The notes beneath the pieces are model-generated. The model was not told the DNA's origin and ran no database searches. It worked only from the letters and a program-made list of their open reading frames with translations. This document shows, in pieces, positions 13,791-36,023 of a stretch of DNA of 44,072 nucleotides. This DNA comes from Candidatus Zapsychrus exili (GTDB lineage Bacteria; Omnitrophota; Gorgyraeia; Zapsychrales; Zapsychraceae), in NCBI GenBank assembly GCA_030765585.1, contig JAVCCJ010000061.1:1-44072 (forward strand), given 5' to 3'. A program made the translations under genes and the position numbers. Within the stretch, counting starts at the first letter, position 1. Each line of letters begins with the position of its first letter.

Positions 13791-14411
13791 ATGACTATTA
13801 CACCTCAAACTACAGTAAGCAGCATTGAAGCTATCACCAGTTCAATAAGTACAGATCCTCATACTTACCGATGGTTTTATTTTCTCATATTTCAGCCTTC
13901 TTTAAAGAAAAAACTATGTTCAAAAGAAGATATAAACAAAATATATAAGAAATTAAAGAAAACTGTTCAAATACAAATGACGCTCTATATTTTTTCTATG
14001 CTTTTATTATGCTTTGCTTATGTTTCTAAACAATATTTATCTCTACTCACTCTTACCCTTTTTTTATATCCTCTAATAAAACTATATTTAGAAAAAAAGA
14101 GATGTGTGGTCGAGATTAGCAACCATATGCTAAGCCGCGATTTTGATACATCTGAAATTATTACAAAAACTCTTTATCAAATAACATCAATATACGGCAA
14201 GAAATATAAGATCCCTTGCTTGGTTGAAACAATTCATTTCTCAGATAATTTATGCAGAAAAGCTATTATTTTCACCTTTATCATTACTTGCTTTATTTAT
14301 CCATTCGACAGATTTTGGAAAATAATATTCTTTGTTTTATTTGTTTATTCCCTTATCTACCTTGTCACCAACACACATCTTGCATATAAATGCATAAAAC
14401 CAAAATTTTAA
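13791..14411 (+). CDS. Hypothetical membrane protein (~4 TM)
   Basis: 206-aa ORF with two pairs of hydrophobic segments; overlaps the convergent gene by 4 bp. Confidence 0.7.
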   Translation: MTITPQTTVSSIEAITSSISTDPHTYRWFYFLIFQPSLKKKLCSKEDINKIYKKLKKTVQIQMTLYIFSMLLLCFAYVSKQYLSLLTLTLFLYPLIKLYLEKKRCVVEISNHMLSRDFDTSEIITKTLYQITSIYGKKYKIPCLVETIHFSDNLCRKAIIFTFIITCFIYPFDRFWKIIFFVLFVYSLIYLVTNTHLAYKCIKPKF

Positions 14412-16327
14412 GAAGCCAGACTAAGAAAGATTCTTGCCGAAATATATACTATCGCCACCAAAGCAGCTATATTTCCAATTCGCGTAGCAGTCAAGAAAAG
14501 AACATTATTCACTACGTTATATAAATAAGACAACACGTACCTGTTCATATTTTTGTGCTTAAACACAATCTGTCCTAAAAAATAACTTCTCCAGTTAAGA
14601 TTCGTTATTCTATTTTCTCTTAACATATTATTGTAAAATGCTGAACCTGGAAGCGGAGTTATTAAAGAAACTGCCGTTACATCAGGTCTTAAATAAAAAC
14701 ACGATTTCCACAATTTAATCAAGTCTGAATATCTATCAGATTCAAAACCAAATATAAAATGAGCCTTTATATTGATTCCTGCCTTCCTAACTGCTTTTGT
14801 ATATTTTATATAATCATCTGCAAAATTAAACTTTCCTCCTTTAGCCTTTTCAAAAGAATCTCTAAATATCTCATAACCAAATAAAAGCATCTTACATCCG
14901 CTTTCTTTGGCTAAACGGATAGTATCTTCATCTTTTCCAATATCAATCGTACTTTGTGAAGCCCATTTAAGCTTCAAAGGCTTTAAAGCAGCAAATAATT
15001 CTTTTGCATAGGCAGGAGAGGAATAAATATTATTATCTAAAAATAAAAGAGACTTATATTTTGTTTTAATTCTTTTTGCAAACTCTATAACCTCATCAAT
15101 AGGCTTGTATCGTGGCTTTGATCCGCATAAAGAAGAGACAACGCAAAAGTCACAGCTAAACTTACATCCATGTACTGCCTCAAGACAATATCTTGCCTCC
15201 TCAATAGGAGCATTTAAAAGTTGCTGATGAACTTTCTTGTTAGATTCTTCCGACGGTCCACCAAAATATTTATCTTTTAAACAATCATTCTCATAATCCC
15301 TTATCACATCTTCCCAAACTCCTTCTGCCTCTCCAATTACTACACTATCGCAATACTCCAAAGCCTCGTCAGGCAGAAAAGTAACATGTGGCCCACCCAT
15401 AATAACCTTTGATCCTCGCGCCTTAAATCCCTTAGCAATGTTATACGCCTCATAAGCGTTAGACGTAAAGCACGTTATACATACCAGTTTGTCGCTATTA
15501 TAATACTGATCACGCCAAGTAACTTGAAGAAATCTACGTATCTTATAATCTTTTGGAGTTAAAGACTCTAGCACAAAGAAAGCTGGTGGATAAAAAAATA
15601 GTAAGGGAAACGCGATGCTATTTAAAATACCACCGTTTATTGGACTAACTAAATAAATCTCTTTTTTCGGATTAAACCTCTTTTTCAAATCATCATGCGC
15701 ATCTACCATTATATTTATAAAATATACAAATTCTAAAAGCTTAACATAAGTTAAAATAAAAAGTATAATCCTAAAGAAATAAAAATTCTTAATATGAAAT
15801 ACCTGCGGCAAATAGAACAAACACATATCTACCGTATAAATAGCAAGAATCGTTAAGAAAATCTTGAACCCTACAACTACTTTCTTTCTAGAAAGCCCCT
15901 CTTCTCTTAAATATTTACCTACAATAAAATTTGCCAACAAATACAAAACAACTACATTAAAATGAGCTCCTATAAAGAATGGCGACGGTAACATTTTAAT
16001 AGGAATCGTAATTGATAAAATTATATGCACAAACAAAGGAGCCAAAGTTAATAAGAAATAAAACCAAAAAAGTTTCCTAACATTAGTCTTACAACTTAAT
16101 ATCTTTGGTATAAACTCCTTTCTACTTGCGATATCAGCTAAAACACCATAAATTCCGCTTAATATAAAAACCTTTAAAATACTAAATAAAATAAGCACTA
16201 GCGCTGACATATTACTTTTAAATAAAAACATATATGTCGTATCAAGCATATACACACTAAATACAAAAATTAATATGCTATTTAAACTACCAAAGGATTT
16301 CTTTAAAATAAGATTATTACCTAACAT
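14408..16327 (-). CDS. Cobalamin-binding radical SAM enzyme with an N-terminal multi-TM domain
   Basis: First ~210 aa contain about 6 TM helices. B12-binding region ITCFTSNAYEAY...VIMGGPHVTFLPDEA...VVIGEAE, CxxxCxxC (CKFSCDFC), FLDNN, FIFG and TPLPGS motifs. Confidence 0.88.
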   Translation of the reverse strand: MLGNNLILKKSFGSLNSILIFVFSVYMLDTTYMFLFKSNMSALVLILFSILKVFILSGIYGVLADIASRKEFIPKILSCKTNVRKLFWFYFLLTLAPLFVHIILSITIPIKMLPSPFFIGAHFNVVVLYLLANFIVGKYLREEGLSRKKVVVGFKIFLTILAIYTVDMCLFYLPQVFHIKNFYFFRIILFILTYVKLLEFVYFINIMVDAHDDLKKRFNPKKEIYLVSPINGGILNSIAFPLLFFYPPAFFVLESLTPKDYKIRRFLQVTWRDQYYNSDKLVCITCFTSNAYEAYNIAKGFKARGSKVIMGGPHVTFLPDEALEYCDSVVIGEAEGVWEDVIRDYENDCLKDKYFGGPSEESNKKVHQQLLNAPIEEARYCLEAVHGCKFSCDFCVVSSLCGSKPRYKPIDEVIEFAKRIKTKYKSLLFLDNNIYSSPAYAKELFAALKPLKLKWASQSTIDIGKDEDTIRLAKESGCKMLLFGYEIFRDSFEKAKGGKFNFADDYIKYTKAVRKAGINIKAHFIFGFESDRYSDLIKLWKSCFYLRPDVTAVSLITPLPGSAFYNNMLRENRITNLNWRSYFLGQIVFKHKNMNRYVLSYLYNVVNNVLFLTATRIGNIAALVAIVYISARIFLSLAS

Positions 16328-16331
16328 AAAT

Positions 16332-16952
16332 TTATTCTAGACCTTGTTTATACTGTTCGTTGATTGTTTTATACTGCCCTTGGGTTAATAATTCTATTTG
16401 TTCGCGACGACTATCTTCAGTCTGCATCATTATTTGCTGTTGCTTAACAATTACATTCTTTAATGTGTCCTCAATAATTGCCCTAAAAATAGTCTCATTT
16501 ACAATTGGATGAATAATTGCATCAGCCTGAGCTTTGATATCTTTGTTAATTACAGATAAAGGCACTCTCTTGTCTTTTAATTGTTTATATTGATTAAGAC
16601 AATTTTGATACGCTTCTGCAATAATATTTAATATAGCTTCATTTCTTGTTGCTTGAATTACAATCTGTCCAAGAGCATAGCTTGCAAGCTCAGGGTTAAG
16701 CCCAATGTTTTGACTTGTTATTGCCTTCTGTAGAACTTCTTTTACCTTTTCTTCAAAAGCAAAATAAACTTCGTCCTGCACAAAATTACTTCTTTGATTA
16801 ATTGGATTAATTTTAAGCTGCATCTTTGGAGCAGATATTAAAGCTCCGGCTGAAGGCCCGCCAGACATCAAAACCCCAGAGTCTTGCGCAAATGTAATAG
16901 ACGAGATAATAATAGTTAAAATAATTAATATAAATATTAATAAATTTCTCAC
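16332..16952 (-). CDS. Hypothetical exported helical protein
   Basis: Sec signal ending in TFA-QD; tight 4-8 bp spacing with both neighbours. Confidence 0.75.
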   Translation of the reverse strand: MRNLLIFILIILTIIISSITFAQDSGVLMSGGPSAGALISAPKMQLKINPINQRSNFVQDEVYFAFEEKVKEVLQKAITSQNIGLNPELASYALGQIVIQATRNEAILNIIAEAYQNCLNQYKQLKDKRVPLSVINKDIKAQADAIIHPIVNETIFRAIIEDTLKNVIVKQQQIMMQTEDSRREQIELLTQGQYKTINEQYKQGLE

Positions 16953-16960
16953 AATTATTA

Positions 16961-17590
16961 TTATGAAACTTTTATATGTGTAGTCAAGGAAGGATTAAGA
17001 ATCTTGTCAGTTTTAATGAAGTCTTGAAGCTTGAAAGCTTTCTTGTCTAAAACAAGAGCTAGTATTTGCTCTATTTCATTTTTCTGATGAAGGTTAGGTA
17101 CAAACGTAGTACGAAATTGATACTTAATGCTAGAATTTTCTATTATGCTGATACTTTGTTTTATTCGAGCAAGATCAACATTACATCCAGCAAGCTTATT
17201 GTAATTTAGAAAACTTGCCTTTATGTCCATTGCAATAAAATTCAAAAGGCCTCGGTCTAATGCCTCTGTTATTACATCTGGATTGCTTCCATTCGTATCC
17301 AATTTAACTAAGAAACCTAAATCTTTTATTTTTTGTAAAAAAGGTATCAGATCGGATTGAATGGTGGGTTCACCACCGGTAACAACTACTGCCTGCAATT
17401 TGTCTACTCTACTTTTAAGAAATGTAAATACATCGTCTTCTAAAATAGTATCTCCAAATTGCTCTGACAAAACCAATTCTGGATTATGACAAAAAGGACA
17501 CCTAAAATTGCAGCCCTGCGTAAAAACAGTAGCTGCAATTTTGTTAGGATAATCAATTAAAGAGAGTTTTTGTAAACCACCTATGCGCAT
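16961..17590 (-). CDS. nrdG: Anaerobic ribonucleotide reductase activating enzyme
   Basis: SLIDYP...VFTQGCNFRCPFCHNP, TGGEPT and KLDTNG motifs; overlaps nrdD. Confidence 0.95.
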   Translation of the reverse strand: MRIGGLQKLSLIDYPNKIAATVFTQGCNFRCPFCHNPELVLSEQFGDTILEDDVFTFLKSRVDKLQAVVVTGGEPTIQSDLIPFLQKIKDLGFLVKLDTNGSNPDVITEALDRGLLNFIAMDIKASFLNYNKLAGCNVDLARIKQSISIIENSSIKYQFRTTFVPNLHQKNEIEQILALVLDKKAFKLQDFIKTDKILNPSLTTHIKVS

Positions 17591-19689
17591 AATTTATACG
17601 TTTTTCTTACCCTAAATTCTTCTTGCTTTCCTTTATTCCATTGCTGAACAGGGCGTAAGTATCCAACAACGCGAGAATAAACTTCACAAGTATTCTTACA
17701 TTTAGGACAGCTACTATGTTCTCCTGCAATATATCCACAGCTTGGACATACGCTAAAAGTAGGACTTATTGTAAAATAAGGCAAGTGATAATTAGAGCAA
17801 ACTGTCCTAATAAGCGACTTTAATGCCCCTACATCATCTATCTTCTCTCCGATAAATCCATGCAAGACAGTACCTCCTGTATACCTGGTCTGAAGTCCAT
17901 CCTGAAGATCTAAAACCTCAAAGATATCATCAGAATAATTTACGGGCAAATGAGTCGAGTTTGTGTAAAAAGGTTCTTTGCCTTTTTTGTACTCACTTTC
18001 ATTAGAGCATATAATATCTTTATACTGCTCCTTATCTAATTTTGCTAGTCGATAAGAAACGCCTTCGGCGGGAGTTGCCTCAAGATTATATATGTTTGAA
18101 GTCTCATCCTGATATTGTGCTAACGTATCGCGCATAAAATCAAGTACACGTTTAGAGAATTCTTGTCCTTCGTCTGATGCTATATTTTTACCCAAGAAAT
18201 TAAGACAAGCTTCATTCATTCCTATCAAACCAATTGTTGAAAAATGATTTTTCCAATACTGATTTGTTCTCTTTTTTATATTCCTTAAAAAGAATTTCAT
18301 ATAAGGATACAAATTCTCGTCGGTTAGTCTTTCCAATATTTTTCTTTTTATCTCAAGACTTTCTTTTGCAATTTCCATTTGATTTTCAACGCGCTTAAAA
18401 AAGTCTTCTTCATTTTCTGACAAATATCCTATCTTTGGCATATTAATAGTTGCAACACCAATTGAACCAGTTAAAGGAGATGATCCAAACAAACCTCCAC
18501 CTCGACTTCTTAGCTCCCTGTTATCAAGACGCAGTCTGCAACACATACTTCTAGCATCCTCTGGATCCATATCAGAATTAATAAAGTTAGAAAAATATGG
18601 AATACCGTATTTTGCTGTTACTTCCCACAACAAATCAAGATTTGGATTATCCCAATCAAAGTCTTTTATAATGTTATAAGTTGGAATTGGGAAAGTAAAT
18701 ACGCGTCCCTTCGCATCACCTTCAGACATTACCTCTAAAAATGCTTTATTAAACATATCCATTTCTGCCTGAAATTCTTTGTATGTTTCTTTTTGCAATT
18801 CACCACCTATCACAACGCTCTGGTCGGAAAAATACTGAGGCGGAGTTAAATCCATTGTAATATTTGTAAATGGTGTTTGAAAACCAACACGAGTTGGAAC
18901 ATTAATATTAAAAACAAAACCTTGCAATGCTTGCTTTAATTGCTTATAGGTAAGATTGTCATAACGAATAAAAGGTGCCAGCAGTGTATCAAAGTTCGAG
19001 AAAGCTTGTGCACCTGCTGCCTCACCCTGAAGCGTATAGAAAAAGTTTACAATTTGTCCTAACGCGCTTCTTAAATGTTTTCCTGGCTTAGACTCCATTT
19101 TTCCTTGAGCTCCTTGAAAACCACTGATAAGCAAATCGTGTAAATCCCATCCAACACAATAAACGCTAATAAGACCTAGATCATGAATATGGCAATCACC
19201 TTCTGCATGCGCATTCTTAATTCTAGGAGGATAAATTTTATTTAACCAATAAACTTTACTAATTTCAGATGATAAATATTGGTTCAAACCTTGAAGAGAA
19301 AAAGCCATATTGCTATTCTCATTTACCTTCCAATCTGCTCTTGTTAAATACTGATCAACTAAATCAACATTACTCTTAGATGTTATCTCTCTTATCTTTG
19401 TATGCTGATCACGATAAATAATATACGCTTTTGCTGTTTGTCTATATGGGGAAACCAAAAGAACTTCTTCTACTATATCTTGAACCTCTTCTACTGTTGG
19501 AACCTTGTCCTTAACCAATTGCTGAATTAAATTGACAACACGCATAGTAAGTTTTTGCGCTACTTCTTCTGAAAATTCATCTGTTGCCTGACCCGCCCTA
19601 AAAATAGCAGTAGCTATTTTCTGAGAATCAAAGTCTTCTGTAGAACCGTTTCTTTTGCAGATTTTGGTAAGGACTGAGGTGGTTTGCAT
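17581..19689 (-). CDS. nrdD: Class III anaerobic ribonucleoside-triphosphate reductase with ATP-cone
   Basis: N-terminal ATP-cone (KRNG...FD.QKI...VEEVQDIVE), YC and SMCCRL motifs, C-terminal CxxC..CxxC and glycyl-radical loop YSRVVGYLRPV. Confidence 0.97.
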   Translation of the reverse strand: MQTTSVLTKICKRNGSTEDFDSQKIATAIFRAGQATDEFSEEVAQKLTMRVVNLIQQLVKDKVPTVEEVQDIVEEVLLVSPYRQTAKAYIIYRDQHTKIREITSKSNVDLVDQYLTRADWKVNENSNMAFSLQGLNQYLSSEISKVYWLNKIYPPRIKNAHAEGDCHIHDLGLISVYCVGWDLHDLLISGFQGAQGKMESKPGKHLRSALGQIVNFFYTLQGEAAGAQAFSNFDTLLAPFIRYDNLTYKQLKQALQGFVFNINVPTRVGFQTPFTNITMDLTPPQYFSDQSVVIGGELQKETYKEFQAEMDMFNKAFLEVMSEGDAKGRVFTFPIPTYNIIKDFDWDNPNLDLLWEVTAKYGIPYFSNFINSDMDPEDARSMCCRLRLDNRELRSRGGGLFGSSPLTGSIGVATINMPKIGYLSENEEDFFKRVENQMEIAKESLEIKRKILERLTDENLYPYMKFFLRNIKKRTNQYWKNHFSTIGLIGMNEACLNFLGKNIASDEGQEFSKRVLDFMRDTLAQYQDETSNIYNLEATPAEGVSYRLAKLDKEQYKDIICSNESEYKKGKEPFYTNSTHLPVNYSDDIFEVLDLQDGLQTRYTGGTVLHGFIGEKIDDVGALKSLIRTVCSNYHLPYFTISPTFSVCPSCGYIAGEHSSCPKCKNTCEVYSRVVGYLRPVQQWNKGKQEEFRVRKTYKLCA

Positions 19690-19926: not shown

Positions 19927-21162
19927 ATGAAACGATATAAAATAATAAATACCTTATTTATTATTATCCTCCTAATTGGTATCTTAAGTAATTTTAAGTC
20001 ACCTAAAGAAATAATTTCTACAAATTCTTCAGATGCCTCGTCTTGCTCTCTAGTCTTTCCTGACGCTGATGAATTCATAAAAGAAACATCTAATCCGGCC
20101 TATTACAAAGCATACAAAATAAATCCAGAGACAAAAAGAAAAACTACAGCAGGAATTGTACTTTTAACAAAAGATACTGCCCCTGAAATCAAAGGCTATT
20201 CAGGGCCTATTAACATAGCAATAGGAATTAATTTAAATGGCGTTATCTCCAATGTAGCTATTGTATCTCACAGCGAAACGTCGTCTTATATTAAAGAAAT
20301 AAATAGTTTCTTAAGACAATTCAAGAATAAAAAAATAAAAGATTCATTTAAAATTGGAATCGACATTGATGCTATAAGCCGAGCAACAGTAACAAGCTCT
20401 GCCATTGCAAAGTCTGTGGCTGTAAGCATAAATAAGATATTTAACCTAAACGACGACCCTATCTTGACCGACGAGAGAATGAAAATAGATGAAATCGTAA
20501 TACCTCTGATATTATTTCTGCTAAGCATCTATGCTGTTATTTTAAAAAACAATAAATTACGACTGCTTTCTCTGTTTATAAGCTTTATCTATTTAGGTAT
20601 AATCAAAGCAAGCATGGTGTCTATCATACATATTGCAAATTTAAGCTTATTTAATCTGCCTAATTTTAATACAAGTATTCTTTGGTATTCGCTTATGACA
20701 CTAAATATTCTAACGCTTATCTTCTTTAAGAATGTTTATTGTCTAGGGGTTTGTCCTTTTGCAGCCGTAGAGAATGTAATAAGCAAAATAGCAAAATTTT
20801 TACATATCAAGCAGATGCATACATCGAGCAAAATTGATAAAAATGCGCGACTAATAAAATATGGTATTCTTCTTACATCCCTTATCATTGCTTTTTTATT
20901 TAAAAATTCTGATAATCTTAACTTCGAAGTGTTTATATTATTATTTACAAGAAATGCATCTTATCTAGGATGGGGCTTTGTTACAATCACCCTTATCGCT
21001 TGTGCTTTAAACTCAAGATTTTGGTGTAAATATTTCTGCCCTGTCGGAGCATTTAACAAAACAATACGAAGAATTATATCAGTTTCTTCTATTATGTCAT
21101 TCCTGCGCAGGCACGTAAAATCCCGTAGGGACCACGTCCCTTTACGGGCAGGAATCTCATGA
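19927..21162 (+). CDS. FMN-binding domain plus 4Fe-4S-binding membrane protein (NosR/NirI/YccM-like)
   Basis: KGYSGPI, HSET and IDAISRATVTS flavinylation-like motif; TM bundle with two CxxxCP motifs (CLGVCP, CKYFCP). Confidence 0.88.
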   Translation: MKRYKIINTLFIIILLIGILSNFKSPKEIISTNSSDASSCSLVFPDADEFIKETSNPAYYKAYKINPETKRKTTAGIVLLTKDTAPEIKGYSGPINIAIGINLNGVISNVAIVSHSETSSYIKEINSFLRQFKNKKIKDSFKIGIDIDAISRATVTSSAIAKSVAVSINKIFNLNDDPILTDERMKIDEIVIPLILFLLSIYAVILKNNKLRLLSLFISFIYLGIIKASMVSIIHIANLSLFNLPNFNTSILWYSLMTLNILTLIFFKNVYCLGVCPFAAVENVISKIAKFLHIKQMHTSSKIDKNARLIKYGILLTSLIIAFLFKNSDNLNFEVFILLFTRNASYLGWGFVTITLIACALNSRFWCKYFCPVGAFNKTIRRIISVSSIMSFLRRHVKSRRDHVPLRAGIS

Positions 21163-21219: not shown

Positions 21220-21441
21220 ATGAAAAATAAAAATAAAACATTCCTAATACTACTTATCTTGTCGTTAGCACTTCTACTTGCTACAATACTAGAAAATATG
21301 TTTACTCAGATGCCTGCTGCTCTACTGGATAAGAAAACTATCGCCATAGAAGCAGAAATTGATACATCAGAAATAAGAAATAAACTAAAAGAAGCTGGTA
21401 TAATCCCACATAATGCAAAATATTGGAGAAGGACAGACTAA
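21220..21441 (+). CDS. Small membrane-anchored protein ending in an AmrS N-terminus-like motif
   Basis: Basic N-terminus, one TM helix and C-terminal HNAKYWRR; TAATG stop/start overlap with amrS. Confidence 0.7.
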   Translation: MKNKNKTFLILLILSLALLLATILENMFTQMPAALLDKKTIAIEAEIDTSEIRNKLKEAGIIPHNAKYWRRTD

Positions 21442-22415
21442 TGAATACAGTTCAATGTGAACTATGCCCCAGAAGGTGTCGCCTTAAAAACGGAGAGCGT
21501 GGAAATTGTAGAGTAAGGATTAATCTAGACGGCGAACTTAAAAGTCTTGTATACGGCAATCCTTGTTCAATACATGTTGATCCTATCGAAAAGAAGCCTT
21601 TATATCATTTTCTTCCTACATCAACAGCACTATCAATTGCAACAGCAGGATGTAATCTGCACTGCAAATATTGTCAAAACTGGCAAATATCCCAAAGACC
21701 ACCTGAAGAATTACAAAACGAAAAACTTTCAACAAAAGACGTAGTAGACGCTGCCTTAAAAAATAACTGCAAAAGCATAGCCTATACTTATTCTGATCCA
21801 GTCGTATTTTATGAATACACACTTGAAACTTCAAAAGTAGCAAGACAATATAATATAAAAAATGTTCTAGTCACCGCTGCATACATAAATGAAAAACCTT
21901 TACTTGAACTTTGTAAATATACAGACGCTGCAAATATAGATTTAAAAGGTATTACTGAAGAATATTACAAAAATATGAGCGAAGCTACTTTAGCTCCCGT
22001 GCTTGCCGCAATTAAAATTATGCAAAAACAAGGTATTTGGATTGAACTTACTAATTTAATTGTGCCAACCTTTAATGATAATGAAAAGGATATAGCCAAT
22101 CTCTGTAAATGGATAATAGACAATGTGGGGCCAGATGTACCATTACACTTTTCTCGCTTTTGGCCAATGCACAAACTAAAAAATCTTTTTCCAACACCAG
22201 TTGAGACTTTAACCTTAGCACGAGATATAGCAAAACAGATTGGGATTAATCATGTCTACATAGGAAATGTTGGCGGAGAAGCTGGGAATGATACCCATTG
22301 CCCACAATGCAAGAAAACATTAATAAAAAGACGTGGGTATATGATACTTGAAAACAACATAACTAATAATCAATGTAAATTCTGTAAAAACAATATAGCT
22401 GGTATTTGGAACTAA
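21441..22415 (+). CDS. amrS: AmmeMemoRadiSam system radical SAM enzyme
   Basis: CELCPRRC...C.VR, DPIEKKPLYHFLP, GCNLHCKYCQNWQISQ, AYTYSDP, PLHFSRF.P, VYIGNV and CPQC..CKFC. ATG 21441 is preferred over TTG 21423. Confidence 0.93.
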   Translation: MNTVQCELCPRRCRLKNGERGNCRVRINLDGELKSLVYGNPCSIHVDPIEKKPLYHFLPTSTALSIATAGCNLHCKYCQNWQISQRPPEELQNEKLSTKDVVDAALKNNCKSIAYTYSDPVVFYEYTLETSKVARQYNIKNVLVTAAYINEKPLLELCKYTDAANIDLKGITEEYYKNMSEATLAPVLAAIKIMQKQGIWIELTNLIVPTFNDNEKDIANLCKWIIDNVGPDVPLHFSRFWPMHKLKNLFPTPVETLTLARDIAKQIGINHVYIGNVGGEAGNDTHCPQCKKTLIKRRGYMILENNITNNQCKFCKNNIAGIWN

Positions 22416-22425
22416 AGGAACTCTT

Positions 22426-22596
22426 ATGAACAATAAACAAATAACACGACGAAGCTTCTTAAAAATATTAGGCGGTGTCGTCTTATCATCCTTGTTGCTT
22501 CCCCTTAGCAAAACACTTCCATCATTTAGTGACACTAATAAAAAGAATTTAAAAGAAGCTAAATATTATAAAAGCAACGACAGCTTATTAGGATAA
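22426..22596 (+). CDS. 56-aa twin-arginine (Tat) signal peptide-bearing small protein, not in the ORF track
   Basis: Translated by hand: MNNKQITRRSFLKILGGVVLSSLLLPLSKTLPSFSDTNKKNLKEAKYYKSNDSLLG. Consensus TRRxFLK, AAGGA RBS, and it fills the gap between amrS and the next gene. Confidence 0.88.
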   Translation: MNNKQITRRSFLKILGGVVLSSLLLPLSKTLPSFSDTNKKNLKEAKYYKSNDSLLG

Positions 22597-22599
22597 AAT

Positions 22600-22935
22600 A
22601 TGCAATTTACAATAAAACTTATAATCACAATATCAATAATACTGTTCTGCTCTATCATAGGCAAAAAAATACCTACCCTATCTGGACTTATTGCAACCAT
22701 GCCTTTAACTGGTGCCATTGTTCTTATGTGGCTTTATTTTGACAACCCAGAAAATAAAACAATAGTACAGGGCTACACCAAAGGTGCAATCTGGGGGATT
22801 TTCCCAAGCATACTGTTTTTCATAACTGCATATTTCTGCTTCAAAAAACAAATACCTTTCAATATCACTATGATCTTAAGTTTTATAGTATGGATTATAG
22901 GAGCTTTCTTACATCAGCTATTTTTAAGAGGTTAA
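22600..22935 (+). CDS. DUF3147-like small 4-TM membrane protein
   Basis: KK.PTLSGLIATMPLT...WLY and G..PS..F motifs. Confidence 0.8.
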   Translation: MQFTIKLIITISIILFCSIIGKKIPTLSGLIATMPLTGAIVLMWLYFDNPENKTIVQGYTKGAIWGIFPSILFFITAYFCFKKQIPFNITMILSFIVWIIGAFLHQLFLRG

Positions 22936-22948
22936 AGCGGCGACCGCT

Positions 22949-25198
22949 TCACAACGAAGATCTAAAAAGAAGAATTAAAATCACGAAATTAATTAAAAAA
23001 CAAAATATTGCTATGCTACTTATACCTAAAATAGGTATCAAACACGTCGCTGTTACAATAGCACCCATCGCAGCACCCAACATATCAAAAGCATACAAAG
23101 TACCTGCAGACCTAGTATTTGAATAACGAGAACAGACCACATTACTACTAATTTCAAGGTCAGTCCCCAAATATACAGCTAAAGGATATTGCATACCTCC
23201 AATAAAACCTGCAATGATAGGTAAACTACTAAAAACAGTAGCAAAAATATGTGGGAAATTCTGTATAAATTCAACATCTCTAAATACAACAAAAAGCCAA
23301 GCAAGTAATAGTGGGTACAAACAAATACCTACTTGTATCATTTTATAAATCCTCAAAGCCTCTACCTTAGATATTTTATTGTCTAATATCTTATTTGCCC
23401 TAAAACTTCCTAGGACAAGACCAATCATAAAAAATGATATTATTAAGCCTATTTTATAATACGCATATCCGTAAAGCGCCTGAAAACTTAAAATAACTAT
23501 TATCTGAAATATAATCTCTGAGAATCCTGTTGTAAAAATAGATAAAGTAATCGGAGCTCTAGGTCTTCTTCTTATAAGAATAAGACCTATTCCTAACAAC
23601 AACGCAGGAAACAACAACAAATCCTTTAAACTTATATACTTTATTCTTTCTATAAAATTTCTAAATCCAGAATTAAAATGCGTCGAGAAAAGAACAATAT
23701 CATAAAGGTAGGCAATTGGTTTTGAATCCTTATTAATTGCACCCTTTACGCCTAAAGATCTATTAATATAAGAAACCCTATCTTCACTTAAGACAAACGG
23801 TAAATAATTCTCACTTACATATTTTGTTTCTATTTTTAATACTTCTAGTCTTCTCATTAGCTCTTCTGGATTTAAATCAAGAATAGCTCTTCTTTTACAT
23901 CCAAGAAATATATTTGTATCACCTGGCACTGATTTAACATCAACAAAAACCTCTCTTAAAGTTGAGTTTATTGACTGCAGGAACTCCTTAGCTTCTTTAT
24001 TTAAATAATTCTCTGAAGAAGATACGCTTAAAGTTATAATGCCCTCCTCTTTCAACGCCCTCGATGCTTCTCTAAAAAATTCAACCGTATAATATCTATT
24101 TATAAGGGCTGTATACGGATCAGATAAATTAATTATTATTACATCGTACTTGTCTTCACTTCTCTTAATAAAACGCCTTGCATCAGAATAAATAATATTA
24201 ACTCTTTTATTATCTAAAGACTTGAGGTTCTTTTCAGGCAAATACTTTCTTGAAATATCAATAATTGCTTTATCTAGCTCAACATAATCAATGTTTGCTT
24301 GCTTATATTTTAAAATTTCATCTGTGGAACCTGACAACCCACCTCCAACTAGCAAAACATTACGAGCGTAAGGATTTTGAAGCATAGAATAATGAACACT
24401 CTGTTCTGCAGTTAGCTCATCGCCTGTAGTAAAAGATAATAAACCATTTTCATATAAACTGTACTCTCCGTCTCTTTGGGTAAGCGCTATATTCCCATAA
24501 ACTGAATCTTCTATCCTTACAACATTTGTACCCTTAAACTGAATCTTTCGACTATATCTATCAGCCTTCCCCATAAAACTTAAAAGAACAACAGCCAATA
24601 CAAAAACAGCAACAAACATTGTCCTACTCTTCTTAAGAATTAATAAAATTACACATAAATTTATAATCCCTAAGATTACAGCCAGATACATAGAAGGTAC
24701 AAAATGTATTAGAACAAATGAAAAAATAATCCCTCCTGCTACAGCCCCAAGAGACTCCCACATATAAACGCCTGAAACACCAGAGAAGTTTTCATCTTCA
24801 CTGTATAACTTACATATAAGCACAAATAATCCGCCAAAAATAAATGTTAATGGCGCAAGCAAAAGAAATGCACCTATACTTATTGGAATAATTCCAATTA
24901 TCTCGCCTAATTGAAATCCCATTATCTGTTTAATACATCTGGCTAAGAATATCGTCGATGGTAATAGGAAGAATACATTTATCTGGAATACTGTGATGTA
25001 TTTTAAGGGATCTTTTATCTTCTTTGCAAAAATGCTAAAAACAAAACCTCCTATTGATATCCAAAAAAGCCAACTGGATAAAACAACAGCATAAGACGTT
25101 TCGTTTCCATAAAATGAAGTAATTAACTCACGCATAAGAACTATTTGCGCGATAATTGAGGTGAATCCTAAGATAAAGGCAAGGTATTTAGATTTCAT
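22949..25198 (-). CDS. Membrane-fused spermidine synthase-like (aminopropyltransferase/SAM-binding) protein
   Basis: TM domains flank DSVYGNI, VLLVGGG, VELD, DARRFI, YDVII.NLSDP and YYT.EFF. ATG 25198 is preferred because ATG 25213 lies inside the PFOR terminator stem. Confidence 0.88.
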   Translation of the reverse strand: MKSKYLAFILGFTSIIAQIVLMRELITSFYGNETSYAVVLSSWLFWISIGGFVFSIFAKKIKDPLKYITVFQINVFFLLPSTIFLARCIKQIMGFQLGEIIGIIPISIGAFLLLAPLTFIFGGLFVLICKLYSEDENFSGVSGVYMWESLGAVAGGIIFSFVLIHFVPSMYLAVILGIINLCVILLILKKSRTMFVAVFVLAVVLLSFMGKADRYSRKIQFKGTNVVRIEDSVYGNIALTQRDGEYSLYENGLLSFTTGDELTAEQSVHYSMLQNPYARNVLLVGGGLSGSTDEILKYKQANIDYVELDKAIIDISRKYLPEKNLKSLDNKRVNIIYSDARRFIKRSEDKYDVIIINLSDPYTALINRYYTVEFFREASRALKEEGIITLSVSSSENYLNKEAKEFLQSINSTLREVFVDVKSVPGDTNIFLGCKRRAILDLNPEELMRRLEVLKIETKYVSENYLPFVLSEDRVSYINRSLGVKGAINKDSKPIAYLYDIVLFSTHFNSGFRNFIERIKYISLKDLLLFPALLLGIGLILIRRRPRAPITLSIFTTGFSEIIFQIIVILSFQALYGYAYYKIGLIISFFMIGLVLGSFRANKILDNKISKVEALRIYKMIQVGICLYPLLLAWLFVVFRDVEFIQNFPHIFATVFSSLPIIAGFIGGMQYPLAVYLGTDLEISSNVVCSRYSNTRSAGTLYAFDMLGAAMGAIVTATCLIPILGISSIAIFCFLINFVILILLFRSSL

Positions 25199-25201
25199 AT
25201 G

Positions 25202-25256
25202 AAAAAACCTCATCCCACGCCAAAAGTAAACTTTACTTCAAACGTGGAATGAGGTC
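25202..25256 (-). terminator. Rho-independent terminator of the PFOR gene
   Basis: Minus strand reads ACCTCATTCCACGTTTGAAGTAAA-G-TTTACTTTTGGCGTGGGATGAGGT followed by a T-run. Confidence 0.82.
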
Positions 25257-28952: not shown

Positions 28953-29705
28953 CTATATCTTTTTTATTGAATTCTTTGCTGCCCAACCCATTTTTCCATC
29001 AGCACGTTTTATTTTAAACCAAAATCCTTCATCTTTTAATATAAACACTTCCACCCCTTCTGAGAGTGAAAAATGAGTTGTAGCTGAGTCTAATGGCTCA
29101 AATTTTGCCTCTAAATCACTTACAACAATAGCCTTATTCCTTTCAGATGTAGATTTTGAGATAAGAATAGCTACATTAAAAACAAAAATAATCGCCAATA
29201 TAAGTGTTATCGTTGTTATTTTTCTCTTATTTAAATGTAAATACATGCCTAAAAATACAATTAAACCTGATAAAATGTAGAAAAATAATAATAATTTAGA
29301 TATCTCATCAAGACTTAAATTATCTTTATATCTATCAAGAATCTTTAAAAAAAGATTTCTTGGCAAGACATTAGCATTATTCTTAACAAAAGAATTTACA
29401 TATTTACAATTTGAATCTAGGTCACTATCTCTTGGCATAAGACGCTCTGCACGTCTATAATTAAGAATTGCTATGCCAACTTTTCCATCTTTAAAATAGC
29501 TATTTGCCAAATTATAATAAAGCGGACCACTTACAAATCCATCTTTAACTATAGATTCATATGTCTCTGCTGCTTCTTTATATTTACCTTGTTTATAAAA
29601 ATCCCCTGCCTGATAAAACATAGCGTTCTTGCCAGTCGCATTGCAAACATTTGAGACAATAAGAAAAACAAATACTGCAATTACAATAAATATGGACCTT
29701 CTCAT
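28953..29705 (-). CDS. batE: BatE-like TPR/SH3 membrane protein
   Basis: Signal peptide, TPR (YYNLANSYFK...AILNYRRAERLMPRD), 2 TM and C-terminal SH3b (WFKI...GW). Confidence 0.88.
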   Translation of the reverse strand: MRRSIFIVIAVFVFLIVSNVCNATGKNAMFYQAGDFYKQGKYKEAAETYESIVKDGFVSGPLYYNLANSYFKDGKVGIAILNYRRAERLMPRDSDLDSNCKYVNSFVKNNANVLPRNLFLKILDRYKDNLSLDEISKLLLFFYILSGLIVFLGMYLHLNKRKITTITLILAIIFVFNVAILISKSTSERNKAIVVSDLEAKFEPLDSATTHFSLSEGVEVFILKDEGFWFKIKRADGKMGWAAKNSIKKI

Positions 29706-31483
29706 CTGAAATTCCTTTCAAAATAATCTATTATTTCTTCGCACGCTTTGAGATTTCCCTTTACTAATTCTAAATCTTGATTGGCAGCAGCAAATCGTAC
29801 CTCATCGCATTCTTTGAATAATTTTTCCAACCTGTTTATCACGTTTTCATCTACACCTTTATCATTAAGTATCTTTTTTAAATCAGAAAAAGTCATACCT
29901 GCCGCTGAAATATGAAACTTATCTCCAAAATATTCTGTAATAGTCTTAAAAACACAATCATAGCATTCCAGAGTCTTCTGATCATTCATTTTCTTCTTTG
30001 CTTCTTTCATTAACTCTCTTGCCTTCTTTGGTGCTTGTGTGCGTCGTGCAAAAGCAATGTCTGTTTTAAATCTATTACGTCTTAAACGATATAACAAAAG
30101 CGCTATAAATATAATTGTTATTAAAACAAGAATAGATTTAAAACTAAAGCTTTCAGAGAATAAATAACCTACACTTAAAAATTTCCCAGGTTTACCTTTA
30201 ATATATATGATATCTCTTCCAAGATCCTCTACTGCTATTGCTCCTGATAATCGCGGCAAACCTACTATTCTAAATTCATCTCCTTCTTCTGAAGGCAAAA
30301 TAGTTAAATCAAACGGGCCACGAACAATACTCCTATATTGTTTCAAATTAGAATCAAAATAAGAAAACCTAGCAATTGGAATTTTAGTTGCATTTTCTGA
30401 CTTAGGAATTAATACCTGCTCTAGAATTTTAACATTTCTTTCTTGTCGTATTTGAGGATCATAGGTCTTAAAATTATCGTCATCTTTAAAGTAAGGCATA
30501 TTGATTGCCGAAAGATCACCCTGACCCGAGACTTTCATAATAATAGTAATAGGATCTCCTACCTTAACCATCCCTGGGCTTGCAACAACATCAAAATCAA
30601 ATTGACCAACACCGCCAGAGAAATCTTCAGGCTTTTCATCTCCTGGAAGAGGCAAAACATTTAAAACGTAACCTTCTGATCTTACCTCAACTGGCCTTTT
30701 TTCATAACGATCAAAAAAGCTACCAAAGAAACTATCAGAAGATGATCTTCTTTTTCCCTGATAAAGAATATTAAAACCTAAACGTGCAGGTCCAAACTCA
30801 AGTCTACCTTCTCTTATAGAATACATCTTTGTATTAAATTCAATCACATCAAAACGTATTCCATCTATAACTTGAGTATATTGATTAGGCTGTTTATAAT
30901 CTTCGAAAGTAAGCCCAAGACTATCAAATTTAGGAAACTCGATATCTCTTGCAGTAAATCCTTGTATATAAAGCTTAACCGTAACAGGAACTTTTTCATA
31001 TAAATATATATCACGCTTTGGTACATCTAAAGTAAGTAATATTTTATCTTCCAAACCTGTTTTCCCTGATGATTGCGAAGATTTTGGCACTTGCGCTTTG
31101 CTTGAATCAATAACCTCAATTTTAATAGACTCTGAAGTATAAATTTCTCCTTCAATTTTAATGGACATAGAAGGTATGGTAAATATACCAATCTCAGTCG
31201 GATATAAAGAATAGTTATGAGTAGTTATTTTAGAATAGTTTCCGTTAACTACAGTTACTTGGGTGGAAGGGCCTAAGTATCTTGATTGAAAACCATTGAT
31301 TTCTGGAAGTCCTAAAGCATCTGATGTCGCACCATTTAATGTCAAACTTAAAGTTACAACAGAATCAAGCGTTGTTTTATTTCTGTCTACTGTGACCTCA
31401 AAACTTATGTCTTGCGCCAAGCAAACAACTGCCGAAAAAACAACTATCAAAAAGATTAAAATTTTATTTACATTTTTTGTCAT
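29702..31483 (-). CDS. batD: BatD oxygen-tolerance protein
   Basis: Signal peptide, S..V.VVNG, G.FTIP, F.GGVGQF and F.YFD motifs; position in the Bat operon. Start uncertain (31483 or 31522). Confidence 0.88.
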   Translation of the reverse strand: MTKNVNKILIFLIVVFSAVVCLAQDISFEVTVDRNKTTLDSVVTLSLTLNGATSDALGLPEINGFQSRYLGPSTQVTVVNGNYSKITTHNYSLYPTEIGIFTIPSMSIKIEGEIYTSESIKIEVIDSSKAQVPKSSQSSGKTGLEDKILLTLDVPKRDIYLYEKVPVTVKLYIQGFTARDIEFPKFDSLGLTFEDYKQPNQYTQVIDGIRFDVIEFNTKMYSIREGRLEFGPARLGFNILYQGKRRSSSDSFFGSFFDRYEKRPVEVRSEGYVLNVLPLPGDEKPEDFSGGVGQFDFDVVASPGMVKVGDPITIIMKVSGQGDLSAINMPYFKDDDNFKTYDPQIRQERNVKILEQVLIPKSENATKIPIARFSYFDSNLKQYRSIVRGPFDLTILPSEEGDEFRIVGLPRLSGAIAVEDLGRDIIYIKGKPGKFLSVGYLFSESFSFKSILVLITIIFIALLLYRLRRNRFKTDIAFARRTQAPKKARELMKEAKKKMNDQKTLECYDCVFKTITEYFGDKFHISAAGMTFSDLKKILNDKGVDENVINRLEKLFKECDEVRFAAANQDLELVKGNLKACEEIIDYFERNFR

Positions 31484-31505
31484 AATAGAACTAATTTTAT
31501 AATTT

Positions 31506-32420
31506 TTACCAATCTTTTTCAACTTCTATATATTTAATATTCTGAGGTATTAAATTAAGCAACCCCTTTGACTCTTCATTTTGCTGATAATTCTTAAGCA
31601 ACATCTCTGCTTCTTTTTCTGTCATCTCATTTGCACTTCCTTGGGCTGATTTTTCTTGCGACTGTTTTTGTCTTTCATCTTCATCTTGTTTGCTAGAACT
31701 TTGACCTTCTTCTTTCTCTTGATTTTCCTGCTCCTGTTCTTGACCTTCCTTGTTTTCACTCTCCTGCTCTTGTTGCTTTTTATTTTCTTCTTCGCCTTGT
31801 TCTTTATTCTTATCCTGATCTTCGCTTTGCTGCTGATTCTCTTGATTGCCTTCTTTATTTTCCTGCTCTTGTTTTTGTTGATCTTTTTGATTCTCAGAAT
31901 TCTCTTTATTCTGCTCTTTATTTTGCTGCTGTTGATTCTGTCTTTGCTGTTTCTCGACTAATCTCTCTAGCTCTTTTTTAACAAATTCATAATTATGCTT
32001 TGCATCCTCATCTTTTTCATCAATCTCAAACGATTTTTCATACGAGACCAAAGACTCCTTTAGCTTTGCAATAGCAGGCTCTATCTCTTTATCTTCTTTT
32101 GACAATCCAGACTTATACAAAGTATTTCCTAAATTATAAAGCGCTTGTCGCTTTAGAACATCCTCATCTGATAAGAGCGTTTGTTGAAAATACTTTACAG
32201 CCTCATCATATTTTTCTTGTCTGTAGTTTGCATTACCAAGATTAAAATTAACAACAGATGAATTAGAATCTTTCTCTAAAGCCTTATTATACACCTCCAC
32301 TGATGCCTTATAATCACCTTGTCCATAAAGTTCATTACCCTGTTTCACATCACCTGCAACTGATGCAAAAACTTTAGAAACCATAAACACAAAAATAATA
32401 ACAATAAATGTTTTTCTCAT
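31506..32420 (-). CDS. batC: BatC-like TPR protein with a Q/E/N-rich linker
   Basis: GNELY, FNLGNANY, YNLGN and DAKHNYE motifs; low-complexity linker; C-terminal KDW. Confidence 0.9.
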   Translation of the reverse strand: MRKTFIVIIFVFMVSKVFASVAGDVKQGNELYGQGDYKASVEVYNKALEKDSNSSVVNFNLGNANYRQEKYDEAVKYFQQTLLSDEDVLKRQALYNLGNTLYKSGLSKEDKEIEPAIAKLKESLVSYEKSFEIDEKDEDAKHNYEFVKKELERLVEKQQRQNQQQQNKEQNKENSENQKDQQKQEQENKEGNQENQQQSEDQDKNKEQGEEENKKQQEQESENKEGQEQEQENQEKEEGQSSSKQDEDERQKQSQEKSAQGSANEMTEKEAEMLLKNYQQNEESKGLLNLIPQNIKYIEVEKDW

Positions 32421-33418
32421 TTCCTAACGCCTATACCTATCAATGTTTCCCAACATAAAAATATCAATGCTATTAATAATGGAATTTGAAAACGATCAAA
32501 ATATCTTTTTTCCATAGTACTTTTTATTTCATGCTTCTCCATTGTAACAAGTCTTTGATCGTATATTAAATCTAAACCAAAACGTGCACCAGATGCATGA
32601 ACATATGTTCCGTCAGTCAATAAAGAGACTTCTTGTAAAATATTTTCATTTAATCTAGACTTAACAAAATTGCCTTGCTTATCTTTTAGAAATTCATAAT
32701 TACCCTGATTATTTCTAATTCGAATAAGCTCTCCATCTTTTGTACCTATTCCAATACAAAATATTTTAATACCTTGTTTTTGAGCTTCGCGAGCAGCATC
32801 AGCCACATTACCTTCAAAATCCTCTCCATCGGTAATAATTATCATTGCCTTATATTTGCCTTGAGCACTCTTATATGTCGCTATCCCTTCTTTAATAGCA
32901 GCAGCCAAAGACGTTCCTCCCTGAGGTATTGTTTCTGGACTTATATCGTCTAGGCTTAAAAGAAAACCGTGATAATCGACCGTAAATGGACACACCAAGA
33001 ATGACCCACCGGCAAACGCTATTAATCCTATTCTGTCGCCATGAAGTTTCTTAATCAAATCCTTTACAGCTAATTTAGAACGCCCCAATCTATTTGGTTT
33101 TACATCATCGGTTAACATACTTTTTGAAGTATCAATTGCAACCAAAATATCTAGCCCTTCTCCTTTTATTTCCTGCCATTTAAAACCCCATTGAGGACGC
33201 ATAAGCGCAAAGATAGAAAATAATAAAACTATTGATATAAAAATAATTCTCTTCTTTTCTTTTTTCTTTTGTAAATTTGGTGCAATTTCATCTAGAAGAT
33301 GTTTCTCAACAAACATCTCCCTCAAAGACTGTTTCTTTTTATTCATTAAACTTAAAAAAACAATCACAGGCACAATTGCCCAAATAAAATAAAATATATT
33401 CCAATTTGCAAATTTCAT
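32417..33418 (-). CDS. batB: BatB vWA-domain protein
   Basis: RPQWG, MIDAS DTSKSM, PNRL, ITDGED and SRLNE..L motifs. Confidence 0.92.
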   Translation of the reverse strand: MKFANWNIFYFIWAIVPVIVFLSLMNKKKQSLREMFVEKHLLDEIAPNLQKKKEKKRIIFISIVLLFSIFALMRPQWGFKWQEIKGEGLDILVAIDTSKSMLTDDVKPNRLGRSKLAVKDLIKKLHGDRIGLIAFAGGSFLVCPFTVDYHGFLLSLDDISPETIPQGGTSLAAAIKEGIATYKSAQGKYKAMIIITDGEDFEGNVADAAREAQKQGIKIFCIGIGTKDGELIRIRNNQGNYEFLKDKQGNFVKSRLNENILQEVSLLTDGTYVHASGARFGLDLIYDQRLVTMEKHEIKSTMEKRYFDRFQIPLLIALIFLCWETLIGIGVRK

Positions 33419-33420
33419 AG

Positions 33421-34419
33421 TTATGGTATTTGTAAAAATATAGTGTTTATCAAAATTAATTCTATAAAAAGCAAAGCAAGGGCCGCCAATAGAAAATATC
33501 CAAAAAGTTGCTTATATTCTCTATATCCTGTCTCCTCTATTTCTGTCTTCTCTAACTTATCTATTTCTTTATAAATTTCTCTTAAAGATTCAGTATCAGT
33601 TGCCCTAAAATATTGCCCTTCTGTTATATCTGCAATTTCCTTTAAAGTTTTCTCATCTAAATCAACTCGTACTTGCCTATATACTTTTCTACCAAAGAGA
33701 TCTCGGGTTGGAAACGGAGCCAAACCATTAGTACCTGCTCCAATGGTGTATATTTTAACTCCCAACGGTTTTGCAGCCTCTGCTGCTTTTAAAGGCTCAA
33801 CCTTACCTGCATTATTAACGCCGTCTGTTAAAAGAATTATTATTTTGCTTTTAGCTTGCGACTGATCAAGACGGCTTAAAGATGATGCTATAGAAGAACC
33901 TATTGCCGTGCCATCTTCCTTTATAAGACCTAATTCGATTCTCTCTAAATGACTTATAAGCCAATCGTAATCTGTAGTCAAAGGACATACCGTATACGCT
34001 TGACCTGCAAATACAACTATTCCTATTCTATCTGCGGTTCTTTTTAAAACAAATTCTTTAACTACGTCTTTTACTATGTTTAATCTATTAGTTCTTTTAC
34101 CTCTTAACTCAAAGTCTTCAGCTGCCATAGAACCGGACGCATCTACGGCTAATATTATATCTATCCCCTCTGTTGTTATTTCTGTTTTCTCTAAAACTTG
34201 ACGAGGACCTGCCAAGGCAACTAAAAATAATCCTAAAATAAACAAGCGCAAGAAAATCAAATTATTGCTTATCTTTGTTTTCCAATTCTTCTTTATTCCA
34301 ACAAGCAATGTCTTAGACGGAAATCTAAAACTAGGAAGCACGCTTCTTTTGCTAATTAAATAAATAGCTATAAGCACAATTGGGGCTAGAAATAAAATCC
34401 AAATGCTACTAAATGACAT
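33421..34419 (-). CDS. batA: BatA vWA-domain protein
   Basis: GIDI.LAVDASGSM.AEDF, DGTAIG, LLTDGVNNAG and YFRATD motifs. Confidence 0.93.
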   Translation of the reverse strand: MSFSSIWILFLAPIVLIAIYLISKRSVLPSFRFPSKTLLVGIKKNWKTKISNNLIFLRLFILGLFLVALAGPRQVLEKTEITTEGIDIILAVDASGSMAAEDFELRGKRTNRLNIVKDVVKEFVLKRTADRIGIVVFAGQAYTVCPLTTDYDWLISHLERIELGLIKEDGTAIGSSIASSLSRLDQSQAKSKIIILLTDGVNNAGKVEPLKAAEAAKPLGVKIYTIGAGTNGLAPFPTRDLFGRKVYRQVRVDLDEKTLKEIADITEGQYFRATDTESLREIYKEIDKLEKTEIEETGYREYKQLFGYFLLAALALLFIELILINTIFLQIP

Positions 34420-34426
34420 AATTTTC

Positions 34427-34521
34427 CTGACTATTGACTGCTGACTAATAACTACTGACTACTGACTAACCACCTTTAAAAGCTTTTGGTCAATTGTCGC
34501 TAGTCAATGGTCTTTGGTCTG
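34427..34521. repeat. Inverted pair of heptamer tandem arrays (CTGACTA-type)
   Basis: Six units (ctgacta ttgactg ctgacta ataacta ctgacta ctgacta, 34427-34468) face five degenerate reverse units (tggtcaa ttgtcgc tagtcaa tggtctt tggtctg, 34487-34521). Confidence 0.8.
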
Positions 34522-35029
34522 TTGTGGTTTCCTTTATAAATTTCTCTGCTAATAATGCTCCGCTATGTATTTCTTTCGCTGTTGGATCATATTTAGCAAA
34601 TTTAACCATATCTGACATATTTAAGAAATCTTTTAACAGCTCTTTATGCCCTTCTTCTAACTTATTTGATCTTTTTATATGCTCTAAAAACTCAGGAGTC
34701 GTCATTTCAGGTGCGCGAAGAGAGAATCTGTCCTCTATATATCGTCTTACAATTAAAGATAGTTCAAAATAATACTCTTTAACCATATCAGAAGACGGAA
34801 GATTTTTATCTATCAAAACTTTTAAACTTTCTAGGGCTATTTCCCAAGGTAATTTTATTATCTCTGGCTCTTGCTTCTTACCCCTATTGTTTAGGAAATA
34901 TCTTAAAATAATCACACATGCTATCAAAACAAATACAACAATCGCAATAATTACCAAAATATGGTTCTCTGGCAAATATACCGGAGGCTTTATGTCTCTT
35001 AGGCCTTCCTGTAAACCATTACTATTCAT
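34490..35029 (-). CDS. DUF4381-like Bat-operon membrane protein
   Basis: LRDIKPP, TM helix, YY.ELS.IVRRYIE.RF...EMTT.EF and D.VKFAK motifs. Confidence 0.85.
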   Translation of the reverse strand: MNSNGLQEGLRDIKPPVYLPENHILVIIAIVVFVLIACVIILRYFLNNRGKKQEPEIIKLPWEIALESLKVLIDKNLPSSDMVKEYYFELSLIVRRYIEDRFSLRAPEMTTPEFLEHIKRSNKLEEGHKELLKDFLNMSDMVKFAKYDPTAKEIHSGALLAEKFIKETTTDQRPLTSDN

Positions 35030-35035
35030 AACCTT

Positions 35036-35950: not shown

Positions 35951-35957
35951 ATTAAAT

Positions 35958-36021
35958 AAGGTAAAAGGTAAAATTTAAAAGGCAAAAATTTTTTCCCTTT
36001 ACCCTTTATCTTTTTACTTTT
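35958..36021. repeat. Inverted pair of heptamer tandem arrays (AAGGTAA-type)
   Basis: aaggtaa aaggtaa aatttaa aaggcaa followed by ttccctt taccctt tatcttt ttacttt. Confidence 0.7.
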
Positions 36022-36023
36022 GT

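Follow-up and report, generated by a model that had tools for sequence, protein, structure and literature searches.

Why would a bacterium encode, directly behind the gene of a radical SAM enzyme, a separate peptide of only 56 residues with a twin-arginine (Tat) signal? This question is raised by a locus of Candidatus Zapsychrus exili, which we analyzed within the window, i.e., the whole stretch of 44,072 nucleotides of contig JAVCCJ010000061.1. The original prediction regarded the peptide as either a carrier for the radical SAM enzyme AmrS or a RiPP-like, radical-SAM-modified exported product. As judged from sequence comparisons, the peptide is most likely the split-off N-terminus of an exported AmrS, consisting of a Tat signal, a linker, and the first beta-strand of the enzyme. 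We propose that its role is probably that of a Tat hitchhiker escort, which would stay uncleaved, bring AmrS out of the cytoplasm, and bind the enzyme by strand complementation. The relevant features, by position in the window, are as follows.

19927..21162, forward strand: NapH/NosR-like membrane protein with an FMN-binding domain and 4Fe-4S motifs (PF04205, PF12801, flavinylation motif); candidate electron donor.
21220..21441, forward strand: 73-aa protein with a single transmembrane segment (TM) and a second copy of the strand motif at its end (matrix score 19.9 bits); candidate outward-facing dock.
21441..22415, forward strand: leaderless AmrS radical SAM enzyme (TIGR04337, 383 bits against a cut-off of 220).
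22426..22596, forward strand: 56-aa putative Tat leader detached from AmrS, followed by the first strand of the enzyme; probable escort acting as an uncleaved signal anchor.
22444..22464, forward strand: twin-arginine motif T-R-R-S-F-L-K, residues 7-13.
22549..22578, forward strand: putative donor strand, residues 42-51, corresponding to the in-cis first strand of AmrS (matrix score 15.1 bits; modelled contacts).
22585..22593, forward strand: conserved terminal L-x-G (G in 150/150 and L at -3 in 143/150 of the best 150 homologues).
22949..25213, reverse strand: protein with a membrane domain and a spermidine-synthase-like (SAM-binding) domain; conserved neighbor of the AmrS clade (52/80 loci).

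The 56-aa ORF starts 10 nt after the amrS stop codon, and AAGGA is located 6 nt ahead of its ATG. As originally predicted, the translation contained a Tat consensus (TRRSFLK) and a hydrophobic stretch (residues 11-25, mean KD 2.15); the curated Tat models scored it below their cut-offs, with 17.3 bits for PF10518 (cut-off 22.7) and 11.7 bits for TIGR01409 (cut-off 16.7). Pattern scans of the genome for the Tat motif matched 6 of 6742 ORFs and gave 26 matches over 7650 frames, among which, by eye, only the 56-aa peptide combined the full consensus with an h-region. Comparison of coding sequences indicated that the ORF is a real gene under purifying selection: pN was lower than pS in 12/12 hand-picked pairs of peptide genes, with the clearest difference in the last 14 codons.

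A profile of 17 homologues matched at least 178 clusters at 50% identity, and the best 150 of the 178, with lengths of 46-92 aa, were matched through to their ends. Homologues with a conserved tail, on which the original prediction depended, were thus found, and the tail was kept across these 150 clusters; A-x-[YFHW]-[YFW] was located 7-9 residues from the C-terminus in all of them. The predicted YY pair is present in the window peptide (Y47-Y48) but is not fixed in the family, where the first aromatic residue was Y in 76, F in 53, and H in 21 of the 150. The twin-arginine position was occupied by RR in 119, RK in 19, and other residues in 12 of the same 150, with the F of the motif invariant. 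The C-terminal Gly was likewise as claimed (G56), and Gly ended 150/150 of the best homologues compared with 41/1178 genome ORFs of at least 200 aa, a count that is partly circular because the search profile was built from Gly-ending rows. Leu at -3 was observed in 143/150, and the background of [LWMIF]xG ends was 14/1178 genome ORFs. Homologues at six loci (L085, L086, L100, L108, L111, and L133) lacked the terminal L-x-G. This terminus is strongly conserved and is unaccounted for by the escort proposal. Mimicry of the host tmRNA degradation tag by L-x-G was also considered and rejected, as the ARAGORN-predicted tag has a different end. Each genome carried one copy of the peptide.

Comparison of 142 family members with curated HMMs (E up to 0.1) gave matches to TIGR01409 for 59, NF038009 for 33, and TIGR02811 for 26. 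Like the 56-aa family, TIGR02811 (formate dehydrogenase region TAT target) and NF038009 are made up of small proteins that combine a Tat motif with a short conserved tail. However, in the 8 members inspected the matches fell mainly on the signal region, and the best scores were far below the cut-offs (15.8 of 48.45 bits for TIGR02811 and 22.2 of 100 bits for NF038009); over the 142 members, the best E-values were 1.4e-6 and 1.2e-4, respectively. The tail and the gene context also differ from those of the two families, and no named family in this comparison covered the 56-aa peptide family.

The origin of the tail became apparent from the adjacent enzyme. In ordinary AmrS, an [AG]-x-aromatic-aromatic strand lies ~13 residues ahead of the first CxxC. 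The AmrS of the window, which is the sole copy in the genome and whose close relatives were mostly Omnitrophota records, matched TIGR04337 only from profile position 11 onward. Its ATG overlaps the stop codon of the preceding ORF (TAATG), and translation could alternatively start from a TTG at 21423. A strand matrix built solely from 39 in-cis AmrS segments (43 loci examined) gave 15.1 bits for the 56-aa peptide and 19.9 bits for the tail of the upstream 73-aa ORF. The former score was equalled by 0/1404 genome C-termini and 0/3000 shuffles, and 122/150 homologues scored above the shuffled 99th percentile. Profile-profile alignment placed the motif in the same register, weakly, with probabilities of 4.6% against AmrS and 20.7% against the dock family. 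When a fused AmrS was modelled with AF2 (pLDDT 96.8), strand E10-13 formed a hairpin with E16-19 before the first CxxC; in the model of the leaderless AmrS, the partner strand ahead of CxxC was reduced to two residues. These comparisons identify the tail motif L-K-E-A-x-Y-Y as the own first strand of AmrS, which is missing from the adjacent enzyme. The original prediction had overlooked both this correspondence of EAxYY and the second copy at the end of the 73-aa protein just upstream.

The distribution of the peptide followed that of the leaderless enzyme. Eighteen of 41 close relatives encoded an AmrS without a leader (that of the window included; 58-69% identity for the others), and all 18 carried the full-length peptide just downstream of amrS (E 4.2e-13 or better); the remaining 23 gave partial signal matches or none. 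This layout recurred across Omnitrophota, Elusimicrobiota, and Gammaproteobacteria. When 301 genomes of the phylum were searched with the peptide profile, 41 matches were obtained: 25 were stand-alone peptides, 11 fell on the N-terminus of AmrS itself (E 7.8e-10 to 6.7e-5), and 5 were others. At the 11 AmrS loci, the Tat leader, linker, strand, and enzyme lay in one frame, and no separate peptide of the 56-aa type was found in the genomes with fused leaders.

Next, we analyzed the occurrence of the Tat translocase, of which the Z. exili genome encodes TatA and TatC. As tatC was found in 37/41 close relatives, this set was uninformative, and the test was repeated on the 301 genomes. There, tatC was found in 25/25 peptide genomes, 11/11 genomes with Tat-fused AmrS, and 0/30 genomes whose AmrS carried a Sec- or TM-type leader, against a background of 153/301; the 30 were the top matches to one TM-fused query and form a biased set. 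We claim no statistic for this pattern because of that bias and because the genomes are kin. In 5/11 Tat-fused cases, tatC was inside the retrieved locus. Among further or overlapping TM-fused cases, neither TatA nor TatC was found in genomes G006, G036, and G042. One exception to the pairing of peptide and tatC was G024, an 87% complete genome in which the peptide was present and TatA/TatC were not found. Of the 30 Sec/TM loci, 28 had an RR-less hydrophobic leader together with an in-cis strand, and the cluster motif was intact in 28/28 scored. Therefore, Tat export of folded AmrS is not obligatory for the clade. In 27 loci of the Omnitrophota phylum (L201-L227), AmrS had a Sec-type signal and an in-cis strand and tatC was not found; if these enzymes are exported, loading of their iron-sulfur cluster must take place outside the cytoplasm.

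In a quick tree of 117 AmrS rows, built after a pattern filter had dropped 12 rows and 11 duplicates or fragments had been set aside, fused-leader and leaderless forms fell into one 82-row group with support of 90, below the starred level. Five label changes were needed within it, and fission or fusion therefore occurred more than once. In two genomes the peptide was unlinked from amrS (L133:1486-1677 and L136:720-896); at the latter locus it directly preceded a lipoprotein-like amrB-A fusion. In L228:1939-4902 (G447), tatC abuts a Tat-fused amrS that is overlapped by a second Tat-leader AmrS-like gene, the two being tandem paralogues. A second family of small Tat proteins, with a Y-P-G motif, was observed after leaderless AmrS in Lentisphaerota, Planctomycetota, and others (L063, L065, L068, L069, L072-L076, L078, L079, L081-L084, L087, L088, L090, L092, L097, and L107). 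Its terminal W-x-G was present in 18/18 aligned members (21 seen), its tail looked similar, on visual inspection, to the C-terminal extension of long-form AmrS, and no upstream dock was seen at these loci. Profile comparison detected only the RR motif in common between it and the 56-aa family.

We then modelled AmrS together with residues 27-56 of the peptide. The complex scored 0.83 (three runs: 0.01, 0.83, and 0.87), compared with 0.00 for the best control; the score mark is one reached by 116/157 solved complexes and 2/215 mismatches. Split-gene halves tend to pass such scoring, and likeness to in-cis forms may drive the 0.83. The runs agreed in at least 68% of contacts, and the pLDDT of the partner was 35-61. 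Confident contacts involved peptide residues 39 and 42-51 and AmrS residues 2-8, 26-39, 124-128, and 150-156, in the in-cis register. As modelled, residues 42-51 would complete the N-terminal beta-hairpin of AmrS. The contacts lie on the N-terminal domain and not at the cluster cysteines 71-78; the terminal L-L-G is outside the confident contacts and gives no evidence either way. The strict pairing with leaderless AmrS, the fused Tat-leader forms, the co-occurrence with tatC, and this model together support the earlier suggestion of a carrier for AmrS.

The surrounding genes were examined for partners of AmrS. The dock motif was present in 17/18 close loci, on a small membrane protein or at the C-terminus of the NapH-like protein, and in relatives the NapH-like protein is fused to the dock or to AmrS. 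Among 80 related loci, many of them incomplete, 52 contained the membrane/spermidine-synthase-like gene, 38 amrB-A, and 30 the NapH-like gene; the spermidine-synthase-like protein may handle SAM or SAM by-products. A DUF3147 membrane protein (22600-22935, 3 nt after the peptide stop) was considered as a part of the system and dropped, as it occurred in 0/80 related loci. According to PMC8238504, ApbE-flavinylated FMN domains and NapH-like proteins are parts of extracytosolic electron transfer. The Z. exili genome encodes ApbE as well as an AmrB-AmrA fusion, at whose N-terminus a Sec-like signal was read by eye.

Several gene fusions were seen in the same survey. A NapH-like domain, TM, strand, and AmrS form one ORF in L020:145-2472 (775-aa frame), and membrane/spermidine-synthase-like and NapH-like proteins are fused in L062:184-3726 and L109:55-3753 (1181 and 1233 aa, respectively). 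Triple AmrB-AmrA-AmrS fusions of ~830 aa occurred in L174-L195 and L197 (Bacteroidales family sample), L239:820-3252, and L240:1012-3504, the last of which starts with a hydrophobic signal-like segment. Elsewhere in the window, 28953-37019 holds an ordinary Bat-type cluster (BatA and BatB vWA proteins, a BatC-like TPR protein, and an AAA ATPase). The stretch 14408-19689 encodes an NrdD anaerobic ribonucleotide reductase and an NrdG-type activase, followed by a 206-aa protein of no assigned family and a 639-aa B12-binding-like radical SAM protein that scored below all cut-offs.

In our proposal, the peptide would bind cluster-loaded AmrS in the cytoplasm, after which TatA/TatC would export the two together, as a hitchhiker complex, across the inner membrane, where the peptide would remain as an uncleaved anchor. 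Outside, AmrS would act with the signal-bearing AmrB-AmrA fusion, and the flavinylated NapH-like protein would supply its electrons. At the outer face, the 73-aa dock might present its copy of this strand and either take over AmrS or hold a second copy; this hand-off is the weakest step of the proposal. A fuller scheme, which we put forward as tentative and on balance doubtful, is periplasmic delivery of AmrS by donor-strand complementation, in which the escort lends its strand, strand exchange passes AmrS to the dock beside the flavinylated donor, and the timing of escort release or clearance may depend on L-x-G; in Omnitrophota lacking tatC, a Sec-type leader would be used and the cluster loaded outside the cytoplasm.

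Alternatively, the peptide may bind AmrS by its strand and keep it tethered at TatC or on the cytoplasmic side of the membrane, with no translocation, a reading we consider unlikely. It draws on the cleavage site, which is mostly lost in stand-alone peptides: in pattern tests, strict AxA was found in 8/150 and a loose site in 28/150, compared with 8/11 and 11/11 of the Tat-fused AmrS leaders, respectively. Release of a mature peptide of ~25-30 residues, as originally predicted, is doubtful on the same counts, and the escort probably stays in the membrane. On the other hand, the loose AxA-like sites retained by all 11 Tat-fused forms argue against a mere tether, as do RR or RK in 138/150 homologues with an invariant F and the signal on AmrB-A. 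The position of the dock points the same way, since in L017 and L019 no TM separates the motif from the preceding FMN domain, and an odd number of TMs comes before it in L005, L038, L042, L054, and L020 by simple hydropathy (L067 had 5 predicted TMs, L052 had none from the first Met, and the L095 reference was unusable); the charge bias around the TMs of stand-alone docks, however, was mixed in several of 16 cases, which favors the tether. So does the literature, where no paper was found with phrases for an exported radical SAM enzyme, and we know of no SAM supply outside the cytoplasm. The Sec/TM-leader AmrS of genomes without tatC, if exported, is hard to square with cytoplasmic cluster loading; this is a real puzzle for the escort and the tether alike.

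The peptide could also be a RiPP- or glycyl-radical-like substrate, with AmrS gripping EAxYY and abstracting H at or near the terminal Gly before Tat exports the product. The conserved terminal Gly, the W-x-G end of the unrelated second Tat-peptide family, and their rarity among genome ORFs would fit this reading, as would the nearest solved relative of AmrS by sequence and fold, the PFL-activating enzyme with its peptide substrate (3cb8, TM 0.60); no solved AmrS structure was found by sequence search. Moreover, PMC7159879 predicts that a Memo-Ammecr1-related radical SAM enzyme modifies a peptide in FtsH ternary systems. We nevertheless regard a substrate role as quite improbable. The strand is a structural element of the same chain in ordinary AmrS, no such peptide occurs in genomes with fused leaders, six homologues do without the terminal L-x-G, and the confident model contacts are away from the cluster cysteines. 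Furthermore, Pfam (E up to 1) detected just PF04055 Radical_SAM and PF13353 Fer4_12 on the window AmrS, and no SPASM domain. The peptide is single-copy and mostly lacks a cleavage site, and the locus shows no releasable core and no cluster peptidase or exporter, its flanking genes being annotated otherwise. The RiPP-like modified exported peptide of the original prediction is unlikely on these grounds. That the ORF is mere gene debris, either a relic of a Tat-amrS rearrangement or part of a frameshifted amrS that truly starts at the 73-aa ORF, is highly improbable: the TAATG overlap and the likeness of the three pieces to one fused gene suggest it, but the peptide gene is under purifying selection, the arrangement is kept in Omnitrophota, Elusimicrobiota, and Gammaproteobacteria, and a frameshift or pseudogene was rejected, with a programmed shift or single error being unlikely because the spacing between the upstream stop and the first CxxC ranges from 1 to 49 nt and takes all frames.

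We know of no reaction for the AmmeMemoRadiSam trio, the bacterial relatives of human AMMECR1 and MEMO1. The window locus resembles this system in that its AmrS is a clear TIGR04337 member, AmrB-A is encoded in the genome, and the peptide motif corresponds to the N-terminal strand of the family. The system comprises AmrS, AmrA/AMMECR1, and AmrB/Memo. In the window locus, the leader and first strand appear as a separate downstream gene, the upstream membrane protein ends in a second copy of the strand, AmrB-A bears an export signal, and a flavinylated NapH-like protein is among the partners. No description of this split arrangement was found in searches of the literature on AmmeMemoRadiSam, on AMMECR1 with radical SAM and Memo, or on radical SAM and Tat; Burroughs et al. 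2019 may treat secreted Memo-AMMECR1 systems. PaoABC is reportedly counted among the Tat hitchhiker pairs. Other pairs are subunits of NiFe hydrogenase and formate dehydrogenase (PMC10924467) and, as a further case, the small subunit of FAD glucose dehydrogenase (PMC9727119). As in those pairs, the twin-arginine signal is confined to one chain, with which a signal-less, cofactor-bearing partner is, here by prediction, co-exported. Unlike them, the escort has no domain of its own, its ~10 predicted binding residues are the excised strand of the cargo, and what is exported would be a radical SAM enzyme. Differences from PFL-AE and the radical-SAM RiPP maturases are that no SPASM domain was found on AmrS and that, in the model, the peptide touches the N-terminal domain and not the active site.

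The AmmeMemoRadiSam trio was described as uncharacterized, with RNA base modification suggested, in PMC2034487. An exported version of AmrS would argue for a substrate in the envelope. The escort proposal would also account for a possible need to co-express the 56-aa gene if leaderless AmrS is to behave in vitro. If true, Tat hitchhiking would take a minimal new form here, with a ten-residue strand serving a folded iron-sulfur enzyme as its detachable export tag, and the three-way switch among Tat-fused, Tat-split, and Sec-fused AmrS, the last with no tatC found, opens periplasmic radical-SAM chemistry, SAM supply, and cluster loading to testing.
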